Source: Oscillospiraceae bacterium
GTDB taxonomy: Bacteria; Bacillota; Clostridia; Oscillospirales; Ruminococcaceae
DNA: 64,000 nt
Reading direction: 5' to 3'
Assembly: GCA_021201235.1 (NCBI GenBank)
Contig: JAJQFI010000024.1
Coordinates: forward strand, 266,657-330,656
The notes beneath the pieces were generated by a model, which was not told the DNA's origin, ran no database searches, and saw only the letters and a program-made list of their open reading frames with translations. Positions 122 through 64,000 of this stretch are shown here, piece by piece. The first letter of the stretch is position 1. Each line of letters starts with the position of its first letter. Both the position numbers and the translations under genes were made by a program.

Positions 122-136
122 TATAAATCTCTCCTT

Positions 137-1292: not shown

Positions 1293-1307
1293 GAGTCTTG
1301 TCCTCCT

Positions 1308-3089: not shown

Positions 3090-3105
3090 TTATCTCACCT
3101 CCGTC

Positions 3106-5883: not shown

Positions 5884-5976
5884 TTATTTACCTTGGGTAA
5901 GAGAAATCTTTCAGCAGGGGAATTGCCATCCCTGTACCCATTCCTTTCATTCGATTTCCCCATAAATTCACTACTC

Positions 5977-6849: not shown

Positions 6850-6871
6850 GGAATCTCTCCCTCCCTAAGAA

Positions 6872-7087
6872 TTATCCGAACAGGTTACTGAGCAACGGAA
6901 CAAGCTGTGTGCCTATAAGGATGACACCGCCGCCCGCCATGAGCTGCTTCATACCCTGAGACTTTGCGCCAGGGTTATCGTTTCCGTAACCCTCCAAAAG
7001 ATTGATTACTCCCCATACACCGAGACCTGCGCCAATGGCGACTACGAGGGTCTGAAGGATAGATATTGCACTTGTGAAAAAACTCAT
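6872..7087 (-). CDS. Maff2-family small membrane protein
   Basis: 71 aa with two TMs. The motif GAGLGVWGVINLLEGYGNDNPGAKSQG is characteristic of Maff2 proteins of Clostridia ICEs. Confidence 0.75.
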   Translation of the reverse strand: MSFFTSAISILQTLVVAIGAGLGVWGVINLLEGYGNDNPGAKSQGMKQLMAGGGVILIGTQLVPLLSNLFG

Positions 7088-7267
7088 TCTTTTTCTTGAA
7101 GCTGACTTTCATTCTCTTGGGTTTTCTTTTGATTTTCAAAGCATTCAGTCAGGAAACGCAGATTTTCCGCATCCCCAAGTCAGCTTCGTCTCCTCTCAAT
7201 TTTGATTTTTGTTCACCTGACTGCTGCTTGCCTTGGAGACGCCGAAGAAAAAGGGGATAAAAGTGCG

Positions 7268-7301
7268 AAAAAAAAGCCGTCAAGATACAATCCTGACGGC
7301 T
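7268..7301 (-). terminator. Intrinsic terminator after the VirD4 gene
   Basis: Hairpin AGCCGTCA..TGACGGCT (7275-7301) followed on the minus strand by a 7-U run (7268-7274). Confidence 0.7.
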
Positions 7302-7417
7302 TTATCAAACCTAATATTCTTTTTCATCCATAGTCTCTCATTCTCTTTATCCTGCCTATCCCATCAGGGATCAGCCCGGATGGGTGGTAGCACCACCTTA
7401 TATCACCTTCCTTTCTT

Positions 7418-9211
7418 TTACACAGTAGCTACCTCCGCTACTTCTTCGTCCGTCACTTCTACTTCATAAGTATCAAACTCCTCGTTGACACCCATTTGCA
7501 AGTAACGATTGATGTATCTCTCAACGTCAAACGCATTCCTGTCATCATAGTCCGCAAGCTCTTTATACCGCTTGTGCTTGGTAATATCGAACTTGTCCGA
7601 CAAGAACGGTCTGACGCCTCTGACTTGCAATATGCACTTGTTTCCATCCATAACCGATAGCTCGTCCCTGCTCATCAGCTCTTTACCCGTCTTCTGGTAG
7701 TTCAACCCATAAGATCGGCTCTGTCCACGGGTATCTGAGGTATTGAACAGGTCAATAGTCTCTTTGCCCAGTGTTTCCGAGATTTCTTTTAAGGTACTGC
7801 TTTCTTTCCCTCCCAAGAAAAGCATTGTGTCGCAGTTACCCGTTATAGTCTCTGCCGCGTCCTTGTAGATAGTTTTGAGCTGTGATTGTGACTGCAAAAT
7901 AATAGAAGCCGATATTTCACGGCTCCTTATTGTTGCGATGAGTTTATCGAATTTGGGGATGGTGCCGATGTTTGCGAACTCGTCGAGCAGAAGTCTTACA
8001 TGAACAGGTAATCGTCCTCCATGCTCGTCGTCTGCTTTATCGCAGAGAAGGTTGAATAGCTGACTGTACATTATAGCCACGACGAAATTAAACGTGTCAT
8101 CGGTGTCCGAGATGATGACGAACATCGCCGTTCTTCTCTCACCGAGCATATCCAGTTCCATCTCGTCATAAGACATGAGGTCTCGAAGTTCCTTAATATC
8201 GAACGGAGCGAGTCGCGCACCGCAAGATATTAGAATAGACTTGGCTGTCTTTCCTGCTGCAAGTTTGTATTTCTTGTATTGCTTGACAGCGAAGTGATCC
8301 GGCTCTCTGCTTTCAAGCTCATCAAACATGAGGTCAACGGGATTTTTGAAGTTTTCATCGTCCTCTCTGGCTTCTGAAGCATTTATCATTTCGAGCAGTG
8401 TCGTAAAGTTTTTCTCGTGTTCAGGTGCTTCGTACCAGATGTAGCCTATAAGAGCCGTGTAATAGAGCTTTTCAGCCTTTACCCAGAAATCCTCGCCGGA
8501 TTTCTCGCCGTCCCCCTTGGTATTGGCAATAATCGTATTGACCAGTTTCAGGATATCCTTCTCGCTTCTTATGTAAGCAAACGGGTTGTAGTGCATCGAC
8601 TTTTTGAAGTTGATGGTGTTCAGTGATTTGATGACATAGCCGTTCTTTTCAAGCATCCTGCCACACTCTACTAATACTGTACCCTTTGGGTCAGTAACAA
8701 CATAGGAACTGTGCATTTGCATGAGATTTGGCTTCACGAAAAATCGCGTTTTTCCTGAGCCAGAACCGCCGATAACAAGGATATTCTTGTTTCTGGCGTA
8801 CTTCGGTTGTGCCGGACGGCTGTTCATCGTGAGTGCTTCCGTCTGAGTAAGTATTACGTTTTTGGAGAACTCCGGGTCGATATATGGCTGGATATCCTCC
8901 GGCTTGCCCCAACGGGCTGAACCGTATTCCTCACCTTGGCGGAACTTCTTACGGTTTTTACCTTTCATGTAGACTGCAAGCTTGAGCAAGGCTGCTGCCG
9001 CTACTCCAACAAACAAGTCAATCGGATTGAAGCTTGGGAGAGGGCTTGAAAACGCTGTTCCGAAATTTGCGAAGCCGCTTGTCAGCTTATCCACCATTTC
9101 GGTACCGGGTGCTGAGCGGAAGACCGCAAAAATCTTGTTTACGAAGTAGAACGCAAACACATACGGAAGATTGAGGAGTATGAGCCGTTTGAAATCTATC
9201 TTTTTACTCAT
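7418..9211 (-). CDS. VirD4/TraG-family type IV coupling protein
   Basis: 597 aa. N-terminal TMs, Walker A GGSGSGKT, Walker B LLLDEFAN. Confidence 0.9.
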   Translation of the reverse strand: MSKKIDFKRLILLNLPYVFAFYFVNKIFAVFRSAPGTEMVDKLTSGFANFGTAFSSPLPSFNPIDLFVGVAAAALLKLAVYMKGKNRKKFRQGEEYGSARWGKPEDIQPYIDPEFSKNVILTQTEALTMNSRPAQPKYARNKNILVIGGSGSGKTRFFVKPNLMQMHSSYVVTDPKGTVLVECGRMLEKNGYVIKSLNTINFKKSMHYNPFAYIRSEKDILKLVNTIIANTKGDGEKSGEDFWVKAEKLYYTALIGYIWYEAPEHEKNFTTLLEMINASEAREDDENFKNPVDLMFDELESREPDHFAVKQYKKYKLAAGKTAKSILISCGARLAPFDIKELRDLMSYDEMELDMLGERRTAMFVIISDTDDTFNFVVAIMYSQLFNLLCDKADDEHGGRLPVHVRLLLDEFANIGTIPKFDKLIATIRSREISASIILQSQSQLKTIYKDAAETITGNCDTMLFLGGKESSTLKEISETLGKETIDLFNTSDTRGQSRSYGLNYQKTGKELMSRDELSVMDGNKCILQVRGVRPFLSDKFDITKHKRYKELADYDDRNAFDVERYINRYLQMGVNEEFDTYEVEVTDEEVAEVATV

Positions 9212-9699
9212 AAATCCATTCCTCGCTCCTTGCTCTTGACCTTGACCTTTTCCCGCTGTTGATTCTTAGACTGCTCCTGATGACGGGAGAGCTTCTGAAG
9301 CAGCGAGGGCTTTTCGTTCTTTATGAGTGACTTTGCGGAAAACTCCTTGAACGCCTGAGTCATGACATCCACATCCCGTCCTTTGAAGAAGACGAGGTAA
9401 CGAGGAGGCTGACCGGCAGTATCCTTCATGAGGGAATAGTCGATTCCATACTTCTTTGCAGTGCGCTCGAATGACTTTATATTTCCGTCTGTCACCTCGA
9501 TTTTGCTGAGAGCGGAGTTCTGCTCGATTAGATGCTTGATTGACTGCTTGCCCCGATAAGTCTTCGGCTGAGAAGCAGACTTCTGAGCCTTCTCGATTTC
9601 CTCAATGAACTTCTTGAGAGCCTTGTTCAGCACCTCTCCGGTAACTTTTCCGCCTTTGATTGCTATTGCAACAACCTTGGTGTTTACTTCGTCCTGCAT
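9208..9699 (-). CDS. PcfB-family conjugation accessory protein
   Basis: 163 aa. Overlaps the VirD4 start by 4 nt, the usual PcfB-VirD4 pairing. Confidence 0.55.
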   Translation of the reverse strand: MQDEVNTKVVAIAIKGGKVTGEVLNKALKKFIEEIEKAQKSASQPKTYRGKQSIKHLIEQNSALSKIEVTDGNIKSFERTAKKYGIDYSLMKDTAGQPPRYLVFFKGRDVDVMTQAFKEFSAKSLIKNEKPSLLQKLSRHQEQSKNQQREKVKVKSKERGMDL

Positions 9700-9772
9700 T
9701 GAATCACTCCTTTCGTGGAATTATTGGGGAGAATCCGGATCTACGGCGGAAATCCCCGATAGTAGATAATTA

Positions 9773-10627
9773 TCACGGCAACACCTCCTTTCTTGAATCA
9801 CCATAGAGGTCATGATTCACAAGTGCCGAATAGTAGTTGTCCATAGTCAACGAGGCGTTATACAGCGTTGTGAGTATGTAAGCCCGGATATTCCGGATGT
9901 CCGACGGGCAGTCATCCATCGCCTGAAAGACGTATTCAATATGCCTGCTGTCTAACTTCAAGAGGCGAGATTTAACTACTTCCTGTGGCATATCCTCACC
10001 GTTTATACGGATAGTCGGACGAGTAGAGCAAATTGCATCCAGCATAATCTCAACCATCTCGTTTGCTCGGTCGATGTCAAAACGCTTGTCCTGAGCAAGC
10101 GTTTCAAGTTCAAGATTATCCCGGATAATCTCTCTGTATCGCTCCCTCTCTTTCATCCCATCCATCCCATCAAGATTGATAGATTGATTGTTACTTACTT
10201 GGTCATTGATTCCATCAGTAATTACTTGATTAGTATTTATTTGTGCAGGATTATCCTTGTGTGGGTTGTCCATGTCTGGATTATCCACATCGGGATTTTC
10301 CATGTGTGGATTGCCCATGTCTGGCAAGCCCGCTTGTGGCTCCTCATATATTTCAAAAACCATGTTGCCGAGTCTTCCTTTTTCGTCTCGTTCACGATGA
10401 CGGATGAGATAGCCAGTTTCTTCAAGCTCACGAAGTGCCGAAAGGATTGCATCAGGTCCCTCTTTGCAGATTGCGGAAAGTCCTCTGGTTGAGAATCTCC
10501 ATCCGTCATTGAATGAGAGCATTTTCGATAACAATCCTACAGACTTCAAAGAAAGTCGCTTGTCCCGAAGATGATAATTTGACATGACGGTGTATCCACG
10601 TCTTCTATTTACACGATAGACAGCCAT
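9773..10627 (-). CDS. Winged-helix DNA-binding protein with DUF6017-like C-terminal domain (putative ICE replication/maintenance protein)
   Basis: N-terminal wHTH-like region (YTVMSNYHLRDKRLSLKSVGLLSKMLS..LRELEETGYLIR). C-terminal ..IRINGEDMPQEVVKSRLLKLDSRHIEYV.. Central DNP pentapeptide repeats. Confidence 0.5.
   Translation of the reverse strand: MAVYRVNRRRGYTVMSNYHLRDKRLSLKSVGLLSKMLSFNDGWRFSTRGLSAICKEGPDAILSALRELEETGYLIRHRERDEKGRLGNMVFEIYEEPQAGLPDMGNPHMENPDVDNPDMDNPHKDNPAQINTNQVITDGINDQVSNNQSINLDGMDGMKERERYREIIRDNLELETLAQDKRFDIDRANEMVEIMLDAICSTRPTIRINGEDMPQEVVKSRLLKLDSRHIEYVFQAMDDCPSDIRNIRAYILTTLYNASLTMDNYYSALVNHDLYGDSRKEVLP
10247..10321. repeat. In-frame 15-nt x5 tandem repeat encoding (D/E)NP(D/H)x pentapeptides
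   Basis: aggattatccttgtg / tgggttgtccatgtc / tggattatccacatc / gggattttccatgtg / tggattgcccatgtc. Encodes GNPHMENPDVDNPDMDNPHKDNP on the minus strand. Confidence 0.85.
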
Positions 10628-10630
10628 GCT

Positions 10631-10837
10631 TCAAGCCTCCTCATTCTTGCGTAAAGTAGACAGTTCGCAGACGGAGTAGGGGCATTTTTCAAACACGCAC
10701 GACTGGTCTTTCCAAAACGGACGATTAAACCGGCAGGTTCGGCATTCGGGGATAATGCCGTCATAACCACTGTCAAATTTCGAGTACGGCGATTCTTTCA
10801 TCATCGCCTCGAATGCGATGAAGCTTTCGTTTTTCAT
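10631..10837 (-). CDS. Small cysteine-rich protein (68 aa), function unknown
   Basis: SD AGGAGG 6 nt upstream of the ATG. Contains CxxC ... C ... CxxxxC. The stop abuts the start of the wHTH gene. Confidence 0.5.
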   Translation of the reverse strand: MKNESFIAFEAMMKESPYSKFDSGYDGIIPECRTCRFNRPFWKDQSCVFEKCPYSVCELSTLRKNEEA

Positions 10838-10910
10838 TTTATTTCCTCCTGTTTTTTGATTTTGAGATAAAAAAAGCCCCGCCAGTGGGTTTGCATTTGC
10901 AATGGCGGGG
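10832..10910. repeat. Direct repeat B, copy 1 (79 nt)
   Basis: tttcattttatttcctcctgttttttgattttgagataaaaaaagccccgccagtgggtttgcatttgcaatggcgggg. About 96 percent identical to 12158-12235. On the minus strand it reads hairpin + U-run + SD + ATG. Confidence 0.9.
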
Positions 10911-10942
10911 TAGCGTTAAACTGTTCTTTTGAGAATAAAGTC

Positions 10943-10971
10943 TTGATTTATGTGTGACTGTGTGATATAAT
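10943..10971 (+). promoter_or_regulatory. Sigma-A type promoter for the Rpn-family gene
   Basis: TTGATT, 17-nt spacer, TATAAT, with TGa directly upstream of the -10 (extended -10). Confidence 0.6.
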
Positions 10972-11005
10972 ATACTCACAGTAAGATAAGATTGGGGCGA
11001 TAGCG

Positions 11006-11878
11006 ATGGGCAACCTTCCAGAGAATCGTTTGGAAATAATTCAGCGTGGTGCTGAAAAAATGCAGAAGCAGAATTTGTTCAGCGACACATTGGCTTCAGT
11101 TGCACTGGAAGACATAGGTGCTTGTCAGCACGTTGTCCGTACGATTCTTGGCAAGGATGACATCGAAATCATAAGCGTAAAAGGGCAGTATCGCCTTTTG
11201 AATATTACATCGAAAGACACGATATTGGACGCATATGCACAAGATAGTACAGGGCGGCATATAAATATTGAAATCCAGCGCAGGGATACTGTTGATCATG
11301 CAAGACGAATCAGATACTATGGTTCTATGATCGATAAGAGCATTCTTGATAAGGGTGCATATTACGATGAGTTGCCGGACGTGTATATAATCTATATAAG
11401 CGAGACGGATTTGCTGAATGTCGGCGAGTCAGTTTATCCGGTTACAAAGACACTCGGAAAGTCCGGAATCCCATATGACGACGGCAATTATGTAGTTTTC
11501 GCAAATGCCACTGTTGATGACGGCAGTGAGGTTGCAAAACTCATGCAGTATTTTAAGAAAGCAGACCCGGACGGTATGAGCCAGGGAGCATTGTCTGAGC
11601 GCATTCATTATTTGAAACGCGAACAAGGAGGTTATGACGAAATGTGCAAAGTAGCAGAAGATCTTTACAACAAAGGCATCGAGCAAGGTATTGAGCAAGG
11701 TATCGAACGAGGTATCGAACAAGGTATCGAACAAGGTATCGAACAAGGTCAAACTGAGAAAGCAAAAGCCATGGCGATTAGTTTACACGCATCTGGTGTA
11801 GCAGAAGATTTAATTGCTAAGGCTGCAAACGTCAGCGTCGAACTTGTTAGAAAGTGGCTTGGTTTGGCTTCAGCATGA
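11006..11878 (+). CDS. Rpn-family recombination-promoting nuclease / PD-(D/E)XK putative transposase
   Basis: 290 aa. The core (..LDAYAQDSTGRHINIEIQRRD..YYGSMI..) has the nuclease-fold pattern of the Rpn/transposase_31 family. The C-terminus carries a (GIEQ)6 repeat. The exact start codon is uncertain. Confidence 0.65.
   Translation: MGNLPENRLEIIQRGAEKMQKQNLFSDTLASVALEDIGACQHVVRTILGKDDIEIISVKGQYRLLNITSKDTILDAYAQDSTGRHINIEIQRRDTVDHARRIRYYGSMIDKSILDKGAYYDELPDVYIIYISETDLLNVGESVYPVTKTLGKSGIPYDDGNYVVFANATVDDGSEVAKLMQYFKKADPDGMSQGALSERIHYLKREQGGYDEMCKVAEDLYNKGIEQGIEQGIERGIEQGIEQGIEQGQTEKAKAMAISLHASGVAEDLIAKAANVSVELVRKWLGLASA
11675..11746. repeat. In-frame 12-nt x6 tandem repeat encoding GIEQ/GIER
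   Basis: ggcatcgagcaa ggtattgagcaa ggtatcgaacga ggtatcgaacaa x3. Confidence 0.9.
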
Positions 11879-11904
11879 GATAGTTATGCCCAGATAAAGA
11901 AATA

Positions 11905-11974
11905 ATAGCTCAGCGGGTACTTTTGACTGTGAAATTATCACAGAATATGTGAGTACTTCGCTGAGCTATTTTTA
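11905..11974 (+). terminator. Long-stem intrinsic terminator after the Rpn-family gene
   Basis: ATAGCTCAGCGGGTAC ... GTACTTCGCTGAGCTAT followed by TTTTT. Confidence 0.6.
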
Positions 11975-12083
11975 CTCGCAGCGTTGTGAGAGTGGCTTGC
12001 CAATAAAAAGCGATGAGGACATGGACAATGCAGGCAAAGTGCAGGAAAAGCGCAGGAAAACGCAGGAACAAGGAAAGTACAAG

Positions 12084-12158
12084 TCAAAAGAACCATCACA
12101 CGGCGACTCTTTTTCTGTATCCAAGCTCAATCTTGTCCACTCAACTTCTCTATCCTCT
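12084..12158. repeat. Direct repeat A, copy 1 (75 nt, degenerate)
   Basis: tcaaaagaaccatcacacggcgactctttttctgtatccaagctcaatcttgtccactcaacttctctatcctct. 67 of 75 positions identical to 13954-14028. Directly abuts repeat B copy 2. Confidence 0.9.
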
Positions 12159-12235
12159 TTCATTTTGTTTCCTCCTGTTTTTGATTTTGAGATAAAAAAA
12201 GCCCCGCCATTGGGTTTGCATTTGCAATGGCGGGG
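12158..12235. repeat. Direct repeat B, copy 2 (78 nt)
   Basis: Differs from 10832-10910 by two substitutions and one T indel. Confidence 0.9.
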
Positions 12236-12360
12236 ATAAGTAGTGGATACTTAGTTGTGGTCGAAGCCTTTGTTTACCTGTCTCGCTCTTGACTAAACCT
12301 CGAATTTATGGTAAGCTATATATGAACCTAAAATTCGAAAGCACAAGGAGGCAGACTGAA

Positions 12361-13938
12361 ATGGGACTATATTTAAATCCGGGCAACGGATCCTTCCGAC
12401 AGATTCGTAATGGAATTTACGTTGATAAAACTGACATGATTGATTATGTGAACAGCACTGTTGACACACCGGCGAAGCTGACCTGTTTCAGCCGCCCAAG
12501 AAGATTTGGCAAGTCGTTTGCCGCAAAGATGTTGTGTGCTTACTATGACAAGAGCTGTGATTCAAGGGAGCTTTTCGCTGGCTTGAAGATTTCAAAGATG
12601 GATTCCTTCGAGAAATATCTCAATAAGTATGACGTAATATATTTGGATATAACCCGATTCATCTCAAGATCGAGAAGCAAGGGAACTGATGTTGTAGCAG
12701 ATATGCAACTGGCAACTATCGAGGAACTGAAAAAAGCATTCCCTGAGTTCGTAAAAGAAGATGAAACCTATTTGCCAGATGCGTTAGGTAGCATTAGCCA
12801 AGCTACTGGAAATAAGTTTGTCATAATCATCGACGAGTGGGATGCACTTTTCCGTGAAGCAAAGGACGACGATAATCTCCAAAAAGAGTATGTTCAGCTT
12901 CTGAGAGGATTGTTCAAAGGCGGCACAGCGACCGATGAAACAATCGCCTTAGCCTACATGACGGGCATTCTTCCAATCAAGAAGTACGGCACGGAATCGG
13001 CACTAACCGACTTCAGAGAGTATACCATGACAAATCCCTCGAGGCTGGCTGAATATGTCGGCTTTACTGAAGACGAGGTAAAGGCACTTTGCAATAAGTA
13101 CAATATGGACTTTGAGAGTATGCAGACTTGGTATGACGGCTATTCATTTAATCAGATACAGCACGTCTATAGTCCGAATTCTGTCATGCTTGCTATATGG
13201 AATCAAGAATTTAGCAACTATTGGACAGCATCAGAAACGTATGAGTCCTTGAAAAAATACATCGAGATGGACTTTGATGGTCTCAAAGGTGAAATTATCA
13301 GGATGCTAAGCGGCGAAGCCGTAAGAGTAAAAGTCAGCACATTCCAAAACGATATGACCTCGTTCAGAAATAAAGACGATGTCCTCACTTTGTTAATTCA
13401 TCTCGGATACCTTGCGTATGATAGCAAAACTCAAAAAGCAACTATTCCGAACTTAGAGGTTGCTGGAGCATTCGGTGATGCAGTCGGTGAAACCAACTGG
13501 GTATATGTGGCGAGTGCAATCAAAGATTCTGATGACTTGCTCGATGCAACGATTGCAGGAAAAGCAGACAAGGTCGCTGATGCTCTTGAAAAAGCACATG
13601 AGGGAGCTTGCTCTGTTTTGGAATATAACAACGAGGCATCCCTTAGTGCAGCGATTGTGTTGGCTTACTATACCGCTCGGCGACAGTATGAGATAGTTCA
13701 TGAATTGCCAACAGGAAAAGGCTTTGCCGACTTGGCATTCCTCCCTCGCAAGTATTCAGACTATCCAGCAATGGTAGTTGAGCTTAAGTACAATCAGGAC
13801 GTCGACACAGCAATCAAGCAGATAAAAGAGAAGCGTTACGACGGCAAGCTGAAAGAGTACTTCGGAAACCTCATCATGGTTGGTATCAATTACGACAAGG
13901 AAACTAAGAAGCATACTTGTGTGATTGAGAAAAGCTAG
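12361..13938 (+). CDS. AAA-ATPase-like protein with C-terminal PD-(D/E)XK nuclease domain (AAA-ATPase_like + PDDEXK_9 architecture)
   Basis: Start at MGLYLNPGNGSFRQI (SD AGGAGG 9 nt upstream). Contains CFSRPRRFGKS (P-loop-like), IIIDEWD (Walker B), and C-terminal ..GKGFADLAFLP..VVELKYN.. (nuclease D..ExK). Confidence 0.7.
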   Translation: MGLYLNPGNGSFRQIRNGIYVDKTDMIDYVNSTVDTPAKLTCFSRPRRFGKSFAAKMLCAYYDKSCDSRELFAGLKISKMDSFEKYLNKYDVIYLDITRFISRSRSKGTDVVADMQLATIEELKKAFPEFVKEDETYLPDALGSISQATGNKFVIIIDEWDALFREAKDDDNLQKEYVQLLRGLFKGGTATDETIALAYMTGILPIKKYGTESALTDFREYTMTNPSRLAEYVGFTEDEVKALCNKYNMDFESMQTWYDGYSFNQIQHVYSPNSVMLAIWNQEFSNYWTASETYESLKKYIEMDFDGLKGEIIRMLSGEAVRVKVSTFQNDMTSFRNKDDVLTLLIHLGYLAYDSKTQKATIPNLEVAGAFGDAVGETNWVYVASAIKDSDDLLDATIAGKADKVADALEKAHEGACSVLEYNNEASLSAAIVLAYYTARRQYEIVHELPTGKGFADLAFLPRKYSDYPAMVVELKYNQDVDTAIKQIKEKRYDGKLKEYFGNLIMVGINYDKETKKHTCVIEKS

Positions 13939-13953
13939 AAAGCTAAATGTAAA

Positions 13954-14028
13954 TCAAAAGAGCCACCACCCGGTGACTCTTTTTCTGTATCCAAACTCAA
14001 TCTTACCCACTCAACTTCTCAATCCTCT
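13954..14028. repeat. Direct repeat A, copy 2 (75 nt); contains a bidirectional terminator
   Basis: Hairpin AGAGCCACC/GGTGACTCT at 13959-13980, flanked by A- and T-runs. It would terminate both the AAA-ATPase gene (+) and the nitroreductase gene (-). Confidence 0.85.
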
Positions 14029-55397: not shown

Positions 55398-56795
55398 ATG
55401 CTCTTGAGGAGTTCGAAGAAAGAAACCAACACGGGAAGATACGAACCTCCGGAACGGGCTCGCCCCGCAAAGCCGTTTTCAAGAACCAAGCAGATTATGC
55501 TCGGATTCCTGGTTATAATTTTAATAGGCTCGCTCCTTCTCGAGCTCCCGATTTCGACGAAGGAGGGGCAGACGACCGACTATTCGGGCGCTCTCTTCAC
55601 GTCCGTTTCGGCGACCTGTGTAACGGGGCTCGTCGTCTACGACACCTATACGCACTGGACGATTTTCGGTCAGCTTGTCCTCCTCCTGATGATTCAGATT
55701 GGCGGCTTGGGGCTCATCACGATTACAAGCTTCGCGATGATTATTCTGCGGCGGCGAATCGGGCTTAATTCAAGGGAACTGATTCGTGAAAGCCTCAACA
55801 CTCCCCAGCTCCACGGCAGTGTTCGCCTTGTCCGGACGATTATCCGGGGAACCCTCCTGGTTGAGGGCATCGGCGCCGTACTTCTTTCGATAAGATTCGT
55901 CCCACAGCTCGGCTTCGGGCGGGGCATCTACTACGGAATATTCCACTCAATCTCGGCATTCTGCAACGCCGGCTTTGACCTCATGGGCTATCAGGGCGAG
56001 TTCTCCTCGCTGACAGCATACACGACCGACCCTCTCGTCTCGATTGTCATCATGCTTTTAATACTCATCGGCGGCATCGGTTTCCTCGTCTGGGACGACA
56101 TTCTCGTCAACAAATACCATTTCAGAAGATACAGGCTCCAGACGAAAATCGTCCTTGTGATGACTGCAATACTCGTCTTCGGCGGAGCGCTTCTGTTCTT
56201 TATCTTCGAGAACTCAAATCTTCTCTCAGGCATGAATTTCGGTGGGAAGGTCTTGGCTTCCTTCTTCGCTTCCGTGACGCCGAGAACTGCGGGCTTCAAC
56301 ACCATCAGCCTCTCCGAAATGACGAATGCAAGCAAGCTTCTGACGGTTATCTTCATGTTCATCGGAGGCTGCCCCGGGTCGACCGCAGGCGGCGTGAAGA
56401 CCACGACAATCGCCGTGATATTCCTCTACATAAAGTCCTATCTCCTGCACACCGAGGACTGCGTTGTCTTCAACCGCAGGCTCGACAAGGACGCGATGAA
56501 GCGTGCAAGCGTTATCATATTCATAAACCTGTCTCTGGCGCTCGTGATGTTCTTCGTCATCATGGCAACGCAGGACTTCGACCCCCTCGACGTCATGCTC
56601 GAGGTCTTCTCGGCGACGGGAACGGTCGGGCTCTCTGCGGGGATAACTTCGTCACTTAACACCGTCTCAAGAACGGGAATTATGATATTAATGTACCTCG
56701 GAAGAGTCGGAAGCCTCACGTTTGCGATGTCCTTCACAGAGCGGCACACGACCGGCAACATCCGCTATCCCGAGGAAAGAGTAATTATCGGATAA
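55398..56795 (+). CDS. trkH: TrkH/KtrB-family potassium uptake membrane subunit
   Basis: Polytopic; selectivity-filter-like ..TPRTAGFNT.. and ..ATGTVGLS.. Confidence 0.85.
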   Translation: MLLRSSKKETNTGRYEPPERARPAKPFSRTKQIMLGFLVIILIGSLLLELPISTKEGQTTDYSGALFTSVSATCVTGLVVYDTYTHWTIFGQLVLLLMIQIGGLGLITITSFAMIILRRRIGLNSRELIRESLNTPQLHGSVRLVRTIIRGTLLVEGIGAVLLSIRFVPQLGFGRGIYYGIFHSISAFCNAGFDLMGYQGEFSSLTAYTTDPLVSIVIMLLILIGGIGFLVWDDILVNKYHFRRYRLQTKIVLVMTAILVFGGALLFFIFENSNLLSGMNFGGKVLASFFASVTPRTAGFNTISLSEMTNASKLLTVIFMFIGGCPGSTAGGVKTTTIAVIFLYIKSYLLHTEDCVVFNRRLDKDAMKRASVIIFINLSLALVMFFVIMATQDFDPLDVMLEVFSATGTVGLSAGITSSLNTVSRTGIMILMYLGRVGSLTFAMSFTERHTTGNIRYPEERVIIG

Positions 56796-56813: not shown

Positions 56814-57461
56814 ATGAAATCAATTCTTATAATCGGTCTCGGCGACTTCGGGCACTACCTCTGCCGCGAGCTTATGCAGTTCAAGAACGAGATTATGATT
56901 ATCGACTCGGACGAAACGGCTCTCGAGGACCTCACGGGGCTCGTGACGAGCAGTCTTATCGGTGACTGCACCCGCGAAAGCGTGCTCAAGAGCATCGGGG
57001 TTCAGAACTTTGACATCTGCTTTGTCTGCCTGAGCGGCAACTTTCAGGCGAATCTTGAAGTCACAAGCCTGCTCAAGGACCTCGGTGCGAAATACGTCGT
57101 CAGTCAGGTGAGAAGCGAGGTTCACTCGAAGTTCCTCCTCCGGAACGGCGCCGACGAGGTAATCCACCCGAACAAGGTCTCCGCCAAGCGTGCGGCTGTC
57201 AAATACTCAAGCGACAAGGTTTTCGACTATATCGACCTCGGCGACGGTTACTCGATTTACGAGATTACGCCCCTCAAGGAGTGGGTCAATAAGAGTATCC
57301 TCGACTCCAACATCCGTGCCCGCTACGACATGTACATAATTGGCATCGTCTCAAAAGACGACACGTCAAACTATATGCCCTCTCCCCAGACGGTAATCGA
57401 ACCCGACGACCACCTGATGGTTCTGGCACATGAATCGACGATGAAGAAGTTTATGGTGTGA
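56814..57461 (+). CDS. trkA: TrkA/KtrA-family potassium uptake NAD-binding subunit
   Basis: ILIIGLGDFGHYL Rossmann motif and RCK_C domain. The last 9 codons lie inside direct repeat DR-L. Confidence 0.85.
   Translation: MKSILIIGLGDFGHYLCRELMQFKNEIMIIDSDETALEDLTGLVTSSLIGDCTRESVLKSIGVQNFDICFVCLSGNFQANLEVTSLLKDLGAKYVVSQVRSEVHSKFLLRNGADEVIHPNKVSAKRAAVKYSSDKVFDYIDLGDGYSIYEITPLKEWVNKSILDSNIRARYDMYIIGIVSKDDTSNYMPSPQTVIEPDDHLMVLAHESTMKKFMV
57435..57461. repeat. Direct repeat DR-L (27 bp; 3' end of trkA including its stop)
   Basis: tcgacgatgaagaagtttatggtgtga, identical to 59100-59126. Confidence 0.95.
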
Positions 57462-57480
57462 GGGATAGGAGGTAACCCGT

Positions 57481-58302
57481 ATGTTGAAATGCGAACTGTG
57501 TGGAAGTACACTCATAAAGGTTGATGATAACGTCTTCGCCTGCGAAGGTTGCGGGTGCAAATACACAAAAGAGCAAGCCCTGAAACTCCTAGACATCAAG
57601 TCCGAAGCTTCGACACCACCCCCAGTTCCAGCAAGCAATGACTTTGTCATCGTTGCAGGAGTTCTTAAAAAGTATACTGGAAGTGCAATAGACGTAGAAG
57701 TGCCGCAAGATGTTTTGGAACTTGATGCAGGTGTGTTCAGTGGAATGACATCATTGCGAAGTGTTAAACTGCCTGATGGTATTAAGTGTATTCCGTCTTC
57801 GGCGTTTTATGATTGCAAGAGCTTAAAATCAGTCACTCTGCCAGATACCGTGACTTGTCTTTGCTCTACTTGTTTTGCAGGATGCATTTCTCTTGAAAAA
57901 ATATCTTTGCCACAACGACTGAAGGAAATACAGACAGACGCGTTCAGTGGGTGTGAATCGCTGACTGAGTTAATGATTCCCAATTCTGTTGAAAAAATCG
58001 GGGATGTCTACAATAATTCAGGCATTGTATACAAAAGTATTTTTGGTTTTTATATTCCTGCTCATTGCTCAGCTAACTTAACTGTGCGTATGCCAAGCAG
58101 ATTTGACCCTCGTCTTGTTAAGGGATGTAAGCGTCTTTACGATTTGTCAGGAAAAAGGATGGAAACGGCAGAAGAATTCTATAAAAATGAGAGCGAGCGT
58201 AATTACCGTAGAAATAACCACTTATGCTTAGCGTGTGGCGGTGAGATCGGAATCTTTTCTAACAAATGCAAAAGGTGTGGAAAGCCGTTTGGGGAAGTGT
58301 GA
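57481..58302 (+). CDS. Cytoplasmic zinc-ribbon / BspA-type leucine-rich-repeat protein
   Basis: SD AGGAGG. N-terminus CELCGS..CEGCGC. At least four LRR_5-like repeats (..FSGMTSLRSVKLPDGIKCIPSSAFYDCKSLKSVTLPDTVTCLCSTCFAGCISLEKISLPQ..). C-terminus CLACGG..CKRCG. No signal peptide. Confidence 0.7.
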   Translation: MLKCELCGSTLIKVDDNVFACEGCGCKYTKEQALKLLDIKSEASTPPPVPASNDFVIVAGVLKKYTGSAIDVEVPQDVLELDAGVFSGMTSLRSVKLPDGIKCIPSSAFYDCKSLKSVTLPDTVTCLCSTCFAGCISLEKISLPQRLKEIQTDAFSGCESLTELMIPNSVEKIGDVYNNSGIVYKSIFGFYIPAHCSANLTVRMPSRFDPRLVKGCKRLYDLSGKRMETAEEFYKNESERNYRRNNHLCLACGGEIGIFSNKCKRCGKPFGEV

Positions 58303-59126
58303 TGTGTTCCCGATTTGTGTATGACAACGAAATTTCACAGGTAGAGAATTCAAATGCCACAGCTCGGCTTTGGATACAGCCGGATCATACTGTATACAAG
58401 CAGTATGTTGTCAGAAACGAGGTAACCGAGCAGAATATAACCAATTTGCTTTTGATGGCTGAGCACAAAAAGGCATGGAAAATTTCAGAGATTGTGTTTC
58501 CCTTGGAGATTGTCAAAGATTCTGGTGCTGTTTTGGGATATACAATGCTGTATATCAACGGCAGAACCATTGATAAATATCAGTCTGATAGAAAAGTTCC
58601 ACGCAATAGCCAATTAGGAGTACTGCTAAAGGTGGCAAAAGTCATTGACGCATTACCGAAAGGTGTTTATATCGGCGACTTACATGGCAATAATATTCTC
58701 ATTGACGATAACGAAAACATACATATTATAGATGTGGACGGGTTTTCGCTCGACAAGGGCTATAAAATCTCTTGCCCCGCGGAGTTTTGGCTACTGTCTT
58801 CTGCCAGACAGAACAAGAAATATTGGAAAGGCGGACGCTTTGTTATATCAAAGGATTCCGATATTCTTTGTTGGTATATGCTATTTGTCACGTGGCTTAT
58901 GGGTGCGTCTCCTTTGATGTATACAGAGAACGAGGTGCAAAATTACTTTTCATACTTGAAAAGTGTAGGTTTTTCCACCTCTATCTTGGATGATATATCT
59001 AGGTTGTCAAGCAAAAGGCATAATATTATTAATATAGCACACATAAACGAACTGAGTGAAAAAGAGTTATCCAGATTCTCATATCACGAATACAGAGAGT
59101 CGACGATGAAGAAGTTTATGGTGTGA
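58302..59126 (+). CDS. Protein-kinase-fold (ePK-like) protein
   Basis: The ATG overlaps the LRR stop (TGATG). Beta-3 Lys candidate TVYKQY. Catalytic loop IGDLHGNNILI. DFG-like IIDVDGF. ..SDILCWYML.. The last 9 codons (ESTMKKFMV) are the duplicated trkA tail. Confidence 0.6.
   Translation: MCSRFVYDNEISQVENSNATARLWIQPDHTVYKQYVVRNEVTEQNITNLLLMAEHKKAWKISEIVFPLEIVKDSGAVLGYTMLYINGRTIDKYQSDRKVPRNSQLGVLLKVAKVIDALPKGVYIGDLHGNNILIDDNENIHIIDVDGFSLDKGYKISCPAEFWLLSSARQNKKYWKGGRFVISKDSDILCWYMLFVTWLMGASPLMYTENEVQNYFSYLKSVGFSTSILDDISRLSSKRHNIINIAHINELSEKELSRFSYHEYRESTMKKFMV
59100..59126. repeat. Direct repeat DR-R (27 bp)
   Basis: Identical to 57435-57461. Confidence 0.95.
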
Positions 59127-59141
59127 ATATAGCTATAGCAC

Positions 59142-59175
59142 AAAAAAGAAGGTCTCTTTGAGACCTTCTTTTTTT
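59142..59175. terminator. Bidirectional terminator (trkHA-cassette operon / FtsX permease gene)
   Basis: AAAAA-AGAAGGTCTC-tttg-AGACCTTCT-TTTTTT. Confidence 0.85.
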
Positions 59176-59180
59176 GGCTT

Positions 59181-61985
59181 TTAGTCTTCGCCCAATTTAA
59201 GTGCCTTATTGATATTGATCGACTTTACAAGCCGTGCGATAATCAGGAAGCCTACGACGAGCATTACGCCTATTATGCAGTAGAGCTTGATGTAGTCGCT
59301 CCTCGATGCCGCCACGACGAACGGCGGGACCTGATCTGTCACGTTGTAGAGAACCTGGAACAGCGGGACGAAGAGGTCTGAGGCTATTCCTCCGATGATG
59401 ATTGCAAGGAATATCGAAACTCCCGAAACGAGCACCTGCTCATAAATCAACATCGAGACGATTTCTCTGAACGACATACCCATCGCCCGAAGGATACCGA
59501 ACTGGAGCGTTCGCTCCCTGATTGAGAGAATCCAGTATATCAGGAATCCGATGAAGCACATCGCCATTATCGTGATGAAGCCGAGGGTCAATGCTCCGTT
59601 TACGCCCTGCAAGATAGCGTCGGTCTTAGATGACGTTATCAGCTGGGAAGCGACGTCAAGACGTGTAAGCGTTATTCCCGCATCCTCAACCGACTGATAG
59701 AGGTCGGCGATGACGGCGTCGTCCGAAAGGCTCATCCAGACCTCATACGGCTCGAGAGTCGTCTGAATCGAGACGTAATTATAGTTCATGATGATGAAGT
59801 CCTGATATTCGCCGCTTGAGTTCTTATCTAACGGGTTAAACGTGGGCCAGTAGTCGACAACCGCGACGACGACCGCCTCGAACCAGTCGTTCGAGCCCCA
59901 CTTGACCTCGACAACGTCGCCCAACTGAATGCCCGTCTTGTCCTGATAGGACTGCGAGACGATAATGCCGTTGGTGCATTCGCTGAGAGCGTTTATATAA
60001 TAATTGATGTGAACGGGGAGAAGGTCATCTCTGAACCAGCAGACCTCTGCAAACTGCTCGGGAACTATTGCCATAATGTCGATTCCGGTCTTGGTGGAGT
60101 CGTTATACCGAACCTGTGCGTTTTCACGGTTCAGAACCGGTGTAGCGACTTCTACGCCCGCTAAATCCTCATAGATGAAGTCGGGCTCGGTGTATTGCGC
60201 CTGAGTTTCCTCCTCGCCTTCGTCGTTCGTGACCGTAACACGGGAGTATTTCCACGATTCCTCGAGGACCGCATCGGCGCCGAGGTTATAAGAAATTCTG
60301 TCCTCTGTATTCTTATTGATAGCCCGGGCTGTATTCGCCGAGAAGATTCCGAGGGCAACGGTCAGCATCAGGAATATCATGATGAACGATTCGCGTCCGG
60401 TCGAGGAACGGCTAAGGTTGTTCATCGAGATATAAGCCGCCGGCGACCAGTGCTTTCTGCCGATTCTATAGATAAGTCTTATGAAATACGGATACAGTCG
60501 GACGCAGAAGAGCGCACAGCCGAGGATGAAGAGGGTCGAAGCCGCGAACATCAGCGGATTCATCGTTGCCGAAGTGTCGGTGACGCCTTGCTCAAGAAGA
60601 ACCTCCTCCTGATAGTTGTGCCAGAGGAGCCACGCCACCGTTCCGACAATCATGATGATGTCGAAGTAGCCTCTCTTCCAAAGGGGCTTTTTCTGTCCGT
60701 GAGCCTTCGACTGCTTGTGCTCGACGATTGTGATTTTGGATGCGCTTATCGCGGGTCCCAAGGTCGTCAGGAAGAACACTGCAACCGCCAGGAATGAATA
60801 TGCAAACGCCGTGACGGAAAGCTTGGTCGAGAGCGCCGTTCTGTTGACGAACTCGAGGAAGCCGTTCGAAACGCCGATAATCCGGCAGAGAAGCAGTCCC
60901 ACAAACGGTCCCACAACTCCGGCTATTCCGCCGAGGATGAGCGTCTCGAGGGCATAAATCTTGACTATCTGCCAACGCGAAGCGCCACGGGATTTGTACA
61001 TCGCAATCTCGTTCTTCTCCGATTCGATGTGGAGCTGGGAAACCATGTATAGGTAGAATATCAGCATCAGAACGACGGGGATGTCGAGCATCAGCATGAT
61101 GTAACGGAGCTGTGAAGCCTCGTCGGCGTAATCCTGCAGGACCTCGAGAGCAGGAACACTGAAGGTGCAGTTTTCGCTCTTATAGAGCTCCTTCTGATTC
61201 TCGAGCGTCGCCACAAGAAGCTCGATGGTGTTCATATCCATGTTCTGATAGTCGATTATGAACGTGCAATCGACCGAGCCGAGGGTTACGACTCCCGTCA
61301 TGATGACCTCGTCGGTAAGGGTGGTGAAGTCGCAGAAGAAGGTGTTGTCGTATTCCGTCAAGCCCTCCGACCAGTAGGTGTCGGTGTCGCTTGCGGATTC
61401 AAAGGTACCGACAACGACAATCTTGACGGTGTCGCCGGGGCTTAAGATATTCGTGACCTCGTATTCCTGATTGAGGACTAATTGCGCCGTCTGCAAAGCC
61501 GCCTCGGTGCAGATGACCTCATAGCAACCGTCTTCGTTCATCCCCGATTCAAACATTCTGCCGTTTGTAATCGTGATATGGTCGCCGATGTCGGTCATGC
61601 CGCCTAATTTTAAGAGCGACAGATCTTCGGATTCTATACTTGAAACATACAGGTATGAATCGGACGTGAAGCACTTGTATGTCAGATACGGCACCAGAAG
61701 GTTATTGAACCTGTCCGCCGCAGTCTGATAGACGCTATAGACGGTCGAGCGCTGTTTCTGGATGCTCGTGCCGCTGACGATGGTTTTCGAAACCTCATAG
61801 ATGCCGGGGTATTCGTCGTTTTCCTCCTGATACTCCTGCATGTCCTTGATGAGCATTCTTTGCAGTGAGCCCTGCATGTATATCGGGATGGCGCTCGTCA
61901 TGGCAGTTGCCATGATAAAGCCTACCAAAAGGCAGATGACCATCCACTTTGTGTTTTTCATTTTCCTGAACAGTAATGTCAGCAC
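59181..61985 (-). CDS. Large FtsX-family ABC transporter permease (two FtsX modules, large extracytoplasmic domains)
   Basis: 934 aa. N-terminus MLTLLFRKMKNTKWM typical of MacB/BceB-like permeases; about 10 TMs. Confidence 0.75.
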   Translation of the reverse strand: MLTLLFRKMKNTKWMVICLLVGFIMATAMTSAIPIYMQGSLQRMLIKDMQEYQEENDEYPGIYEVSKTIVSGTSIQKQRSTVYSVYQTAADRFNNLLVPYLTYKCFTSDSYLYVSSIESEDLSLLKLGGMTDIGDHITITNGRMFESGMNEDGCYEVICTEAALQTAQLVLNQEYEVTNILSPGDTVKIVVVGTFESASDTDTYWSEGLTEYDNTFFCDFTTLTDEVIMTGVVTLGSVDCTFIIDYQNMDMNTIELLVATLENQKELYKSENCTFSVPALEVLQDYADEASQLRYIMLMLDIPVVLMLIFYLYMVSQLHIESEKNEIAMYKSRGASRWQIVKIYALETLILGGIAGVVGPFVGLLLCRIIGVSNGFLEFVNRTALSTKLSVTAFAYSFLAVAVFFLTTLGPAISASKITIVEHKQSKAHGQKKPLWKRGYFDIIMIVGTVAWLLWHNYQEEVLLEQGVTDTSATMNPLMFAASTLFILGCALFCVRLYPYFIRLIYRIGRKHWSPAAYISMNNLSRSSTGRESFIMIFLMLTVALGIFSANTARAINKNTEDRISYNLGADAVLEESWKYSRVTVTNDEGEEETQAQYTEPDFIYEDLAGVEVATPVLNRENAQVRYNDSTKTGIDIMAIVPEQFAEVCWFRDDLLPVHINYYINALSECTNGIIVSQSYQDKTGIQLGDVVEVKWGSNDWFEAVVVAVVDYWPTFNPLDKNSSGEYQDFIIMNYNYVSIQTTLEPYEVWMSLSDDAVIADLYQSVEDAGITLTRLDVASQLITSSKTDAILQGVNGALTLGFITIMAMCFIGFLIYWILSIRERTLQFGILRAMGMSFREIVSMLIYEQVLVSGVSIFLAIIIGGIASDLFVPLFQVLYNVTDQVPPFVVAASRSDYIKLYCIIGVMLVVGFLIIARLVKSININKALKLGED

Positions 61986-63215: not shown

Positions 63216-64000
63216 TTATGAATTACTTTGGGACAGCTCTTCGAGATTCTGTTTTAACGAATCAATCGCATCCTGATTCCTTCTAAGGATTTCAAGCTGA
63301 CGATACGCTTTTTCTCTTAGTATTTTTAGCCTGTCTAACTGTGGCATTTGCTGTCTTATCAAATCGGCATTTGTATCCTCTAGATTTATAAGAACAACCA
63401 ATTCTTCTGCCGAAGCAAAATCTCTGATATTTGGCGTTTTCCCGCTTATTCCGTTTTCATTTCTCCACTGTGCGGCTGTCTTTCCAAATACAGCCATATT
63501 CAAAACATCTGCTTCAGAAGCATATGTATACGCCATTTCTTGCTGAGATAATGTCGGAGTTATCAGAAACTCTTTTACTGCATCTGTATGAATATGGTAA
63601 TTGATTTTTGAGAGTTCTCTTTTTACATCCCACCCAATTGCTAATCTGTCTGCTTCGTCTTTTTTTAGCCTTTGATAGTCTTTGATTACATATAGTTTAA
63701 ACTCCGGAGAAATCCAAGAAGCAAATTCGAAAGCAATATCAGTATGAGCGTAAGTGCCACCATATCGTCCGGATTTTGATATTATACCGACAGCATCCGT
63801 TGCCTTTATCCACTGTTGTGGCGTCAAAGTAAACGCATTATTTCCTGATTCAGCTTTAAACCTATCGAATTCGATAGGTTTAAAATTCGGGTTATGGATT
63901 TGTTCCCATAAACCCAAAAATGATATTGTTGAGTGATTACGCATCCAATTGGCTATGACGATAAAGGCATTGTCCGGATTTTTATATTTTGCAATATCAG
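63216..64000 (-). CDS. KilA-N domain DNA-binding protein (5' end runs off the right edge)
   Basis: The reading frame stays open upstream of the tracked Met: ..DIAKYKNPDNAFIVIANWMRNHSTISFLGLWEQIHNPNF.. C-terminal coiled coil. Confidence 0.65.
   Translation of the reverse strand, partial: DIAKYKNPDNAFIVIANWMRNHSTISFLGLWEQIHNPNFKPIEFDRFKAESGNNAFTLTPQQWIKATDAVGIISKSGRYGGTYAHTDIAFEFASWISPEFKLYVIKDYQRLKKDEADRLAIGWDVKRELSKINYHIHTDAVKEFLITPTLSQQEMAYTYASEADVLNMAVFGKTAAQWRNENGISGKTPNIRDFASAEELVVLINLEDTNADLIRQQMPQLDRLKILREKAYRQLEILRRNQDAIDSLKQNLEELSQSNS

Follow-up and report, generated by a model that had tools for sequence, protein, structure and literature searches.

How did two genes come to lie between two perfect copies of the end of trkA, and what may they do there? 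The question is raised by the 64-kb window studied here (the whole stretch of DNA that was analysed), which comes from an NCBI metagenome-assembled genome (MAG) of an Oscillospiraceae bacterium. The 27-mer TCGACGATGAAGAAGTTTATGGTGTGA occurs in it exactly twice, at 57435-57461 and 59100-59126, and the DNA between the two copies encodes a zinc-ribbon leucine-rich repeat (LRR) protein and a protein-kinase-like protein. Comparison with related genomes and with independent assemblies confirmed that this DNA is a genuine, compositionally foreign insertion polymorphism. The mechanism of the insertion was probably ordinary.

Organization of the occupied site

The host operon begins with trkH (55398-56795, plus strand; Pfam TrkH, 9.5e-59), followed by an intact copy of the potassium-uptake gene trkA (56814-57461, plus strand), whose 215-amino-acid product (NCBI MCD7889729.1) matches Pfam TrkA_N (2.1e-25) and TrkA_C (1e-11). 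The last nine codons of trkA lie inside the left direct repeat (57435-57461, plus strand), which encodes (E)STMKKFMV and the trkA stop. When the preceding Glu codon is counted, which is GAA on the left and GAG on the right, the repeat finder extends the repeat to 30 nt at 29/30 identity, starting at 57432 and 59097, respectively, with a spacing of 1665 nt. No third copy of the 27-mer was found in the window when up to 3 mismatches were allowed, and shuffled sequence gave an expectation of 0 by chance.

The left end of the foreign DNA is a 19-nt spacer, GGGATAGGAGGTAACCCGT (57462-57480, plus strand), which carries the GGAGG ribosome-binding site of gene 1. Gene 1 (57481-58302, plus strand) encodes the zinc-ribbon LRR protein of 273 amino acids (NCBI MCD7889730.1), with an LRR_5 match. 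Gene 2 (58302-59126, plus strand) encodes a protein of 274 amino acids (NCBI MCD7889731.1) that resembles a stand-alone Hanks-type protein kinase in its predicted fold and catalytic motifs. The TGA of gene 1 (58300-58302) and the ATG of gene 2 (58302-58304) overlap by one base in TGATG. In the NCBI annotation (LUG23_07460), gene 2 starts at the ATG at 58266, giving 286 amino acids and a 37-nt overlap with gene 1, but the family alignment supports the start at 58302.

The right direct repeat (59100-59126, plus strand), which is the displaced original tail of trkA, now supplies the last 8-9 residues and the stop of gene 2. The junctions of the occupied site read trkA-DR-GGGATAGG on the left and ACAGAGAG-DR-ATATAGC on the right, where DR is the direct repeat. 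Immediately 3' of the right repeat is a TATAGC tandem duplication (59128-59139, plus strand), followed by a hairpin at 59142-59174 (inverted repeat I1), which the terminator scan identified as a bidirectional intrinsic terminator, the original one of trkHA. It is the sole terminator-like site on the plus strand of the region, and it sits between trkA and a convergent FtsX-family permease gene (59181-61985, minus strand; Pfam FtsX) that forms the conserved right flank.

The scan found neither a promoter-like nor a terminator-like site in the 19-nt spacer, and no terminator between trkA and 59142, so that expression of the pair would depend on read-through from trkHA. The insert is filled by two intact cargo genes and contains no recombinase gene. 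Its G+C content is 0.41 versus 0.52-0.53 in the flanks, and the G+C content at third codon positions (GC3) is 0.38 in gene 1 and 0.44 in gene 2 versus 0.70 in trkH and 0.74 in trkA. In all these respects the sequence bears out an earlier note on this DNA. That note had placed the two 27-mers, encoding STMKKFMV plus the stop with the gaa/gag difference just outside, at these positions, and had let the left copy complete trkA and the right copy end gene 2 ahead of the original terminator. It had also described an AT-richer, recombinase-free insert with TGATG coupling and read-through expression.

Empty sites and the reality of the insertion

A scan for TrkA relatives, with one genome per species, returned 15 loci. 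Empty sites, which the earlier note had proposed to look for, were present at L009, L010 and L019, in Oscillospiraceae/Ruminococcus MAGs whose TrkA is 99% identical to that of the window. Each of them has one copy of the 27-mer, then at once ATATAGCAC and then the convergent FtsX gene, the junction following the pattern CATGA[AG]TCGACG…GTGTGAATATAGC. The FtsX protein encoded directly after trkA is 98.6-99% identical at the amino acid level in the three loci. The trkHA terminator hairpin directly follows trkA in L009 and L019, and a GC-rich hairpin element stands in its place in L010. When the flanks of the window were aligned to the empty-site genomes by blastn, identity was 92.6-94.3%, with the left alignment ending at 57461 and the right one resuming at 59097. 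The doubled TATAGC of the window (ATATAGCTATAGCAC) is single in all three empty sites (ATATAGCAC); the duplication may be a scar of the insertion event or unrelated slippage.

At least five independent runs (SRR15221306/08/10/12/13) gave assemblies with an identical occupied structure. In these assemblies the insert is fixed in every strain variant of the population, and it shows 0-1 single-nucleotide polymorphism versus 0-3 per 2 kb outside. An assembly artefact, in which a separate small molecule sharing the 27-mer was looped into the chromosome contig, would be conceivable for a metagenome-assembled source. This explanation was rejected, as the same junctions recur in at least five runs and the low strain polymorphism of the insert equals that of the flanks, and we regard it as extremely improbable. 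If the Logan assemblies were made with k=31, as we assume, a 27-bp repeat would moreover be too short to yield the structure as a graph artefact. It is also improbable, if less extremely so, that the occupied state is ancestral in the subclade with the KKFMV tail and that the insert was later lost precisely, by deletion between the repeats, at the three empty sites. Recombination is possible between perfect 27-bp repeats at a distance of 1.6 kb, and all the empty sites come from genomes that have diverged by about 6-7%, none from the same strain. However, at least three independent precise losses would be needed versus one gain, the GC3 of the insert (0.38-0.44) has not drifted toward the 0.70-0.74 of the host, the repeats are still perfect while the flanks differ by 6-7% between genomes, and the origin of the repeat would be left unexplained.

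The sequence beyond the trkA stop is hypervariable in this clade, and L009/L019, L010, L045 and L046 mutually diverge right there. In the trkA 3' ends of L011-L018, L045 and L046, the TrkA tails part after HESTM into KKFMV, ARFMD, KKFIDKREKE and AKVIAKRDKD, each followed by the stop. The genes downstream of trkA also vary among relatives and include FtsX, AspRS/HisRS, a ParE toxin pair, MatE and ABC/FtsX transporters. These comparisons mark the 3' end of trkA as a variable spot or synteny breakpoint of the clade. The upstream gene is conserved, TrkH being 86-97% identical at the amino acid level in L009-L016, L018 and L019, 62% in L017 and 40-50% in L020-L023.

GC-rich hairpins resembling repetitive extragenic palindromes or miniature inverted-repeat transposable elements (REP/MITE; CCCCTCCACC…GGGGAGG) were observed immediately 3' of trkA in L010 (6660-6790) and L011 (about 2680-2800), and GC-rich hairpin elements also lie just past the trkA stop in L014, L015 and L045. 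Such hairpins break short-read contigs, and L047 ends within one.

The zinc-ribbon LRR protein

The product of gene 1 matches Pfam LRR_5 at 5.5e-27 (94.6 bits versus a cut-off of 27.7) and has CxxC…CxxC motifs at both ends. Its AlphaFold2 model, with a predicted local distance difference test (pLDDT) value of 88.3, shows in order an N-terminal zinc ribbon, a helix, a disordered linker, an LRR solenoid, a helix and a C-terminal zinc ribbon. The solenoid has about 5 repeats of 23 residues, with beta strands at 71, 94, 117, 140 and 163. The best Foldseek match is Treponema pallidum TpLRR (6mlx; template-modelling (TM) scores 0.51/0.65, E 5e-8), and structural-genomics structures from Bacteroides, Eubacterium and Faecalibacterium are matched as well. 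The zinc ribbons at both ends and the LRRs claimed in the earlier note are borne out by the CxxC motifs, the LRR_5 match and the model, and by its LRR_5 match and its predicted fold gene 1 encodes a protein of the BspA/TpLRR type.

Proteins of this type in gut and oral anaerobes are annotated as surface proteins or adhesins. In contrast, the gene 1 product is capped by zinc ribbons at both ends and coupled to a kinase. Its layout, its opening with a zinc ribbon and the lack of any hint of secretion, as judged from the layout and not by a signal-peptide predictor, suggest that it is cytoplasmic. LRR_5 domains homologous to gene 1 were also found fused to TIR domains (P0219, P0269 and an 873-amino-acid protein encoded within 8910-16852 of L025) or to a PLD-type domain (P0265).

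The kinase-like protein

The AlphaFold2 model of the gene 2 product (pLDDT 91.7) confirmed the predicted fold as that of a bilobal Hanks-type kinase. Foldseek against the PDB returned 1784 matches at E<=0.001, and the best-ranked 50 listed were all protein kinases; among the structural matches are PknB (5u94), RIPK1, PAK1, EphA8 and IRAK4, with E values of about 1e-7 and TM scores of 0.5-0.63. By sequence alone, the family profile reaches MARK2 at 8e-5, and the HMMER alignment places GDLHxxN on RDLKxxN and iDvDGF on aDfGF. Residues K33, D126-L-H128-x-x-N131, D144-x-D146-G-F, C158-P159 and D187 are invariant in 12 family members. They include the beta-3 Lys, the catalytic-loop Asp with an Asn at +5, a DFG-like Asp 13 residues past that Asn and the alpha-F Asp. 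Because the loop Asp and Asn and the DFG Asp are spaced as in protein kinases, the protein is likely to be an active phosphotransferase. The kinase core that the earlier note had read from the motifs therefore agrees with both the predicted fold and the invariant residues.

No Pfam family matched gene 2 at E<0.01 (ABC1 reached only 0.097), and the NCBIfam matches were far under their cut-offs (LanKC kinase domain, 1.7e-4; Kdo kinase, 3e-3), which indicates a divergent, unmodelled family within the kinase fold. The family has no evident glycine-rich loop and bears a distinctive N-terminal motif, NEISQ..N.NATARLWIQ. A profile search of 1.84 billion representative proteins retrieved 45 clusters below 1e-30, 313 below 1e-10 and 1321 below 1e-3. 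Of the best 150 matches listed, nearly all are single-domain proteins of about 270-320 residues. Among the longer members P0020, P0062, P0037 and P0116 no LRR-kinase fusion was found, and no Pfam domain at all was detected in them.

The foreign nine-residue tail has a length that is usual in the family and is modelled as part of the last helix, so the kinase with its trkA-derived end is probably functional.

The best PADLOC matches of gene 2 are kinase models of PD-T4-6 (5.4e-5, 20 bits), covering residues 80-152 (about 73) only. Membership in PD-T4-6 was rejected, since the match is partial and not full length. PD-T4-6 and Staphylococcus Stk2 are reportedly Hanks-type Ser/Thr kinases that act in phage defence. 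They have in common with gene 2 the kinase fold, the beta-3 Lys, the Asp-x4-Asn motif and the DFG-like Asp, but they are single proteins, whereas gene 2 comes with a separate LRR partner.

A recurring LRR-kinase module

The gene-pair search suggested in the earlier note was productive. An LRR gene lies immediately 5' of the kinase gene in the window and in L024, L025/26, L027-30, L031, L032/33, L034, L036-L039 and L044, and L035 probably has the same arrangement. The pair thus recurs in at least 11 unrelated loci, frequently with overlapping stop and start codons. Across ten loci, the pairwise identities of the LRR and kinase proteins correlate (Pearson r=0.81), as expected for co-inheritance. 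These sequence comparisons indicate that a zinc-ribbon/LRR_5 protein followed by a Hanks-type kinase of about 280 amino acids is a conserved module. A solo LRR gene was found in L042 and a distant solo kinase in L040. Close-family kinases always lie behind an LRR gene where the contig reached far enough.

Elsewhere the module is cargo, mostly of conjugative or recombinase-bearing elements of gut Clostridia. In L025 it is accompanied by a MobL/Toprim/TraG conjugative backbone, with Band_7, RCC1 and TIR-LRR genes nearby, and in L032 and L036 large serine recombinases are encoded just downstream of the pair. A HerA/DUF87-like ATPase of about 900 amino acids (PADLOC mad8, 1e-19) and an acidic protein of about 260 amino acids are encoded upstream in L027, L036 and L037. 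L039 encodes a Lon-like double-AAA protease that resembles DolB and BrxL (PADLOC 6e-21 and 8e-10). Band_7/SPFH and small membrane proteins accompany the pair in L025 and L037. No homologue of the kinase was found in IMG/VR, among the INPHARED phages or among the PLSDB plasmids.

In one subfamily, a larger block is conserved that comprises the ATPase, the acidic protein, one or two LRR genes and the kinase (L027 2198-5700; L036 132-410; L037 1547-5040). The pair may be part of a bigger system in this subfamily.

The nearest relatives of the window proteins, in L024, L031 and L044, are 58-60% identical to them where both genes are complete. L024, L034 and L044 each come with a promoter region, a terminator and a kinase tail of their own, the upstream promoter region spanning about 100-260 nt in L024 and L044. 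The native kinase tails of the relatives end in …YRKYCLLNNF or …YRKWYLLNKRQFTE, each followed by the stop. In L044, the kinase gene (1303-2142) has one internal stop in an otherwise intact LRR-kinase operon, which reflects either a pseudogene or a sequencing error.

How the insert arrived

The end of the kinase gene is informative about the origin of the repeat. The nucleotide sequences of the window, L024 and L031 agree through …TATCACGAATACAGA, and homology stops at ...TACAGA. Past this point the relatives read AAATAC/AAATGG…, but the window reads GAGTCGACG…, the sequence found in trkA at the empty sites. As the homology of the kinase ends right before the repeat, the trkA tail would have replaced a native tail, and the repeat would not be an att site brought in by an element. 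The right junction thus removes the native kinase tail, and the left one removes the promoter.

No flanking repeats were found at the five loci with the full pair (L024, L025, L027, L032 and L034); L031 has no left flank. Repeats of 17-21 nt at other LRR-kinase loci link only paralogous LRR genes. The insert has no terminal inverted repeats and no attC-like structure, its sole strong hairpin being the host terminator, and an integron cassette, an insertion sequence or a MITE was rejected on these grounds. No integrase was found next to trkA in the relatives examined, including L009-L019 and L045-L047; this check covered 17 related loci, ten of them for gene content and the rest, such as L020-L023, with five window proteins only. 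Nor was the cassette found elsewhere, exact and 99% identical proteins occurring only in the trkA context, in the samples of one study, and the 27-mer was absent from JGI metagenome contigs. The earlier note had taken the repeats for att remnants of a cis-mobilisable element and the unit for a self-contained mobile cassette. Neither proposal was supported, given family members without flanking repeats, autonomous relatives, no integrase at trkA and a unit seen at one site in one lineage.

The comparisons show that an uncultured Oscillospiraceae lineage gained about 1.64 kb of low-G+C foreign DNA at the trkA stop codon. The incoming DNA was a promoter-less and terminator-less piece of a two-gene operon, which begins 19 nt ahead of the LRR gene and, judged from the relatives, breaks off a few codons short of where the kinase gene natively ends. 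Of trkA, the last 27 nt (30 in all probability) are duplicated, which leaves trkA intact and fuses the kinase gene in frame to the displaced trkA tail and stop. For the way in which this happened we favour, at about even chances, a one-time illegitimate insertion that duplicated 27-30 bp of its target, the pair being now read through from trkHA. A replicative template switch or microhomology-mediated repair could have returned to trkA 27-30 nt behind the point of exit, or a staggered break could have been filled in. The pair would then be transcribed from the trkHA promoter as far as the old trkA terminator, with gene 1 translated from its own GGAGG site and gene 2 by translational coupling at TGATG. 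The perfect repeats would permit precise loss by recombination, regenerating an intact empty site, and the insert would have no mobility of its own.

Like illegitimate insertions by microhomology or template switch, the insertion at trkA is a one-off without recombinase or terminal inverted repeats. It has a target duplication of arbitrary length, it ignores operon boundaries, and it has an extra 6-bp duplication at the junction. PD-(D/E)XK 'transposase' nucleases, which may generate substrates for microhomology-mediated assembly, are a lead only in this context, and nucleases of the Rpn/YhgA type have been linked to RecA-independent recombination (PMC5350276).

Several points weigh against an illegitimate insertion. 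No donor was found, the nearest relative being only about 60% identical, and microhomology at the junctions is not readable, so that the case for this mechanism is made by ruling out others. Random breakpoints usually give less tidy boundaries than those seen here, where only 19 nt precede gene 1, the kinase end is fused in frame and the repeat finishes exactly with a stop codon. Repeats of 27-30 bp at the 3' ends of housekeeping genes are typical of elements moved by tyrosine recombinases and of their recombinase-less derivatives, the cis-mobilisable elements (CIMEs) (PMC5704250). The presence of a conjugative element in the same window means that recombinases acting in trans may exist in this genome. 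Finally, kinase tails vary naturally in the family, so the replaced tail is deduced from three relatives.

The main competing explanation is that the 1665-bp unit is a minimal CIME with an attP site mimicking the trkA tail. It would have been integrated by a tyrosine recombinase acting in trans, for example from a resident integrative and conjugative element (ICE) or integrative and mobilizable element (IME), the trkA 3' end being restored upon integration. Its circular form would carry the junction …ACAGAGAGTCGACG…GTGTGAGGGATAGG… (ACAGAGAGTCGACG…GTGTGAGGGATAGGAGG). Flanking direct repeats of 8-60 bp in which the 3' end of a housekeeping gene is contained are the hallmark of tyrosine-recombinase elements, and CIMEs without a recombinase have been described (PMC5704250). 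The insert is like them in having such repeats, one of which completes the target gene, and no recombinase inside. The exact end of the repeat at the stop codon, the existence of both occupied and empty sites, the conjugative element in the window and the hypervariable sequence past the trkA stop also fit, although this hypervariability makes the coincidence of repeat end and stop codon less special. However, the other LRR-kinase loci have no such repeats and the nearest relatives are autonomous operons, so the repeat is not a property of the gene-pair family, and here the right repeat stands where a cargo gene would natively end. Unlike known CIMEs and IMEs, the insert contains no decayed integration or transfer genes, and its 19 nt of non-coding DNA leave no room for arm-type sites. 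No integrase adjoins trkA in the relatives whose neighbouring genes were examined, and no related integrase-bearing ancestor or neighbour was seen at the site. The 27-mer has no further copy in the window, the end of the ICE included, or in the JGI contigs, the cassette has been seen at a single site in a single lineage, and two deletions flush with both att cores would be required. A CIME-like origin is therefore doubtful, but it keeps some weight because of the repeat signature (PMC5704250), the tidy boundaries and the conjugative element in the window.

Insertion by the host Xer recombinases at a dif-like site is another matter. IMEX elements and pdif modules lack a recombinase and have repeats of about 28 bp, the site consisting of two partly palindromic 11-bp arms around a spacer of 6-8 bp. 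The 27-30 bp repeat and the missing recombinase fit this picture superficially. Yet the best dyad in the 27-mer pairs 5 of 11 arm positions, below the mean of 5.7 in shuffled sequences, at most 14 of 28 positions match the dif sites of E. coli and B. subtilis, and the site lies inside a coding tail, far from any sign of a replication terminus. This lack of symmetry effectively refutes the Xer model, which we consider hardly credible.

Possible function of the pair

The LRR protein may serve an active kinase as its ligand-binding or regulatory partner; of the possible roles, conflict or defence is the most plausible. A role in phage defence is plausible by association: the module is cargo of mobile elements, it has HerA-like, Lon-like and TIR-LRR neighbours, and related LRR_5 domains are fused to TIR or PLD effector domains. 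A more specific model, which we put forward tentatively and hold to be rather unlikely as a whole, is a two-component immune or conflict system of gut Clostridia. In it, the cytoplasmic LRR protein would sense an invader protein and switch on an IRAK/RIPK-like kinase, and the insertion at trkA would represent the capture of such a module from a mobile element and its connection to a housekeeping operon. The addition to this model of a tail-duplicating insertion by an unrecognised recombinase acting in trans and targeting gene 3' ends is less likely.

The pair resembles the LRR and kinase combination of eukaryotic immunity (plant LRR receptor kinases, Toll/IRAK and RIPK), and IRAK4 and RIPK1 are among the structural neighbours of gene 2. 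The bacterial LRR_5-TIR and LRR_5-PLD fusions resemble it through the domain homologous to gene 1. In contrast to the eukaryotic receptor kinases, the LRR and kinase parts are here separate and apparently cytoplasmic proteins, the LRRs being of the LRR_5 type and zinc-ribbon-capped, and the pair has no NB-ARC/STAND or TIR part. In our analysis the likeness appears to be one of logic, not of descent.

Other observations weaken the case for a defence function. Neither protein matches a known defence system in PADLOC, and the literature search yielded nothing specific on an LRR-plus-kinase anti-phage system. The neighbourhood evidence, including the PADLOC matches of neighbours (mad8/HerA 1e-19, DolB 6e-21, BrxL 8e-10), comes from about a dozen loci, without statistics, and the phage, plasmid and IMG/VR collections contained no homologue. 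A serious rival is a toxin-antitoxin-like or purely regulatory role, although in absolute terms we consider it, too, somewhat unlikely. The kinase would be a HipA-like growth-arresting toxin and the LRR protein its inhibitor, or, as a variant, the two would simply be a signalling pair of a mobile element. As in type II toxin-antitoxin systems, the putative neutraliser comes first, its stop overlaps the start of the enzyme gene, the module is small and it is found on mobile elements. An LRR gene was seen on its own (L042), the close-family kinase was never seen without an upstream LRR gene where the contig sufficed, and one kinase copy has an internal stop (L044). Against this, an LRR protein of 273 amino acids is unlike known antitoxins, and the fusion of LRR_5 homologues to TIR and PLD effectors points to a sensor role. 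The kinase has no similarity to HipA, its nearest sequence and structure matches being Hanks-type kinases, and a distant kinase does occur alone (L040).

Other features of the window

The left part of the window (1-10700; G+C about 0.45), with its genes on the minus strand, belongs to a conjugative element that runs off the left end. It encodes a CD1107-like protein (137-1078), a PrgI-VirB4-like ATPase (3106-5883), a TrbL/VirB6 protein (5977-6849), a VirD4/TraG coupling protein (7418-9211) and an HTH_36+DUF6017 protein (9773-10627), all on the minus strand. The same kind of conjugative backbone lies directly upstream of the LRR-kinase pair in L025.

Next to this element, at 10824-14028, are two genes of the PD-(D/E)XK 'transposase' type, at 11006-11878 (PDDEXK_2) and 12289-13938 (AAA-ATPase_like+PDDEXK_9). 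They are bracketed by repeats of 58-89 nt, 10853-10910 being repeated at 12178-12235 (98%) and 12070-12158 at 13940-14028 (84%). At about 14,000, the G+C content jumps to 0.55. PDDEXK_2 genes also flank the trkHA region in L045 and L046. Within the PDDEXK_2 gene of the window, a 12-nt tandem repeat (AGGTATCGAACA-like, about 6-7 copies; 11674-11757) would encode a tetrapeptide repeat. At the right end of the window, a KilA-N domain gene of low G+C (0.38) occupies 63216-63944; its length varies in the population, 289 amino acids versus the 205 called in L006.

Significance of the insertion and of the gene family

As the discovery of a mobile element the case is weak, as nothing shows that the unit moves. 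It is, however, a clean natural example of a promoter-less operon fragment from a mobile element that would be expressed behind an undamaged housekeeping operon. What is new here is the variant, a putative conflict module built on a kinase of an unmodelled family with an LRR protein as its unusual partner; otherwise it is of known kinds. With no Pfam model for 313 clusters at E<=1e-10 and 1321 at E<=1e-3, the kinase family is a sizeable annotation blind spot. To our knowledge, the sensors of bacterial immunity have so far been mostly of the STAND/TPR type or sensors of nucleic acids. If the pair is a working sensor-kinase conflict module, it would add an LRR-based recognition arm to bacterial immunity, and part of the LRR_5 expansion in gut Clostridia, which is very large and unexplained, would gain a function.

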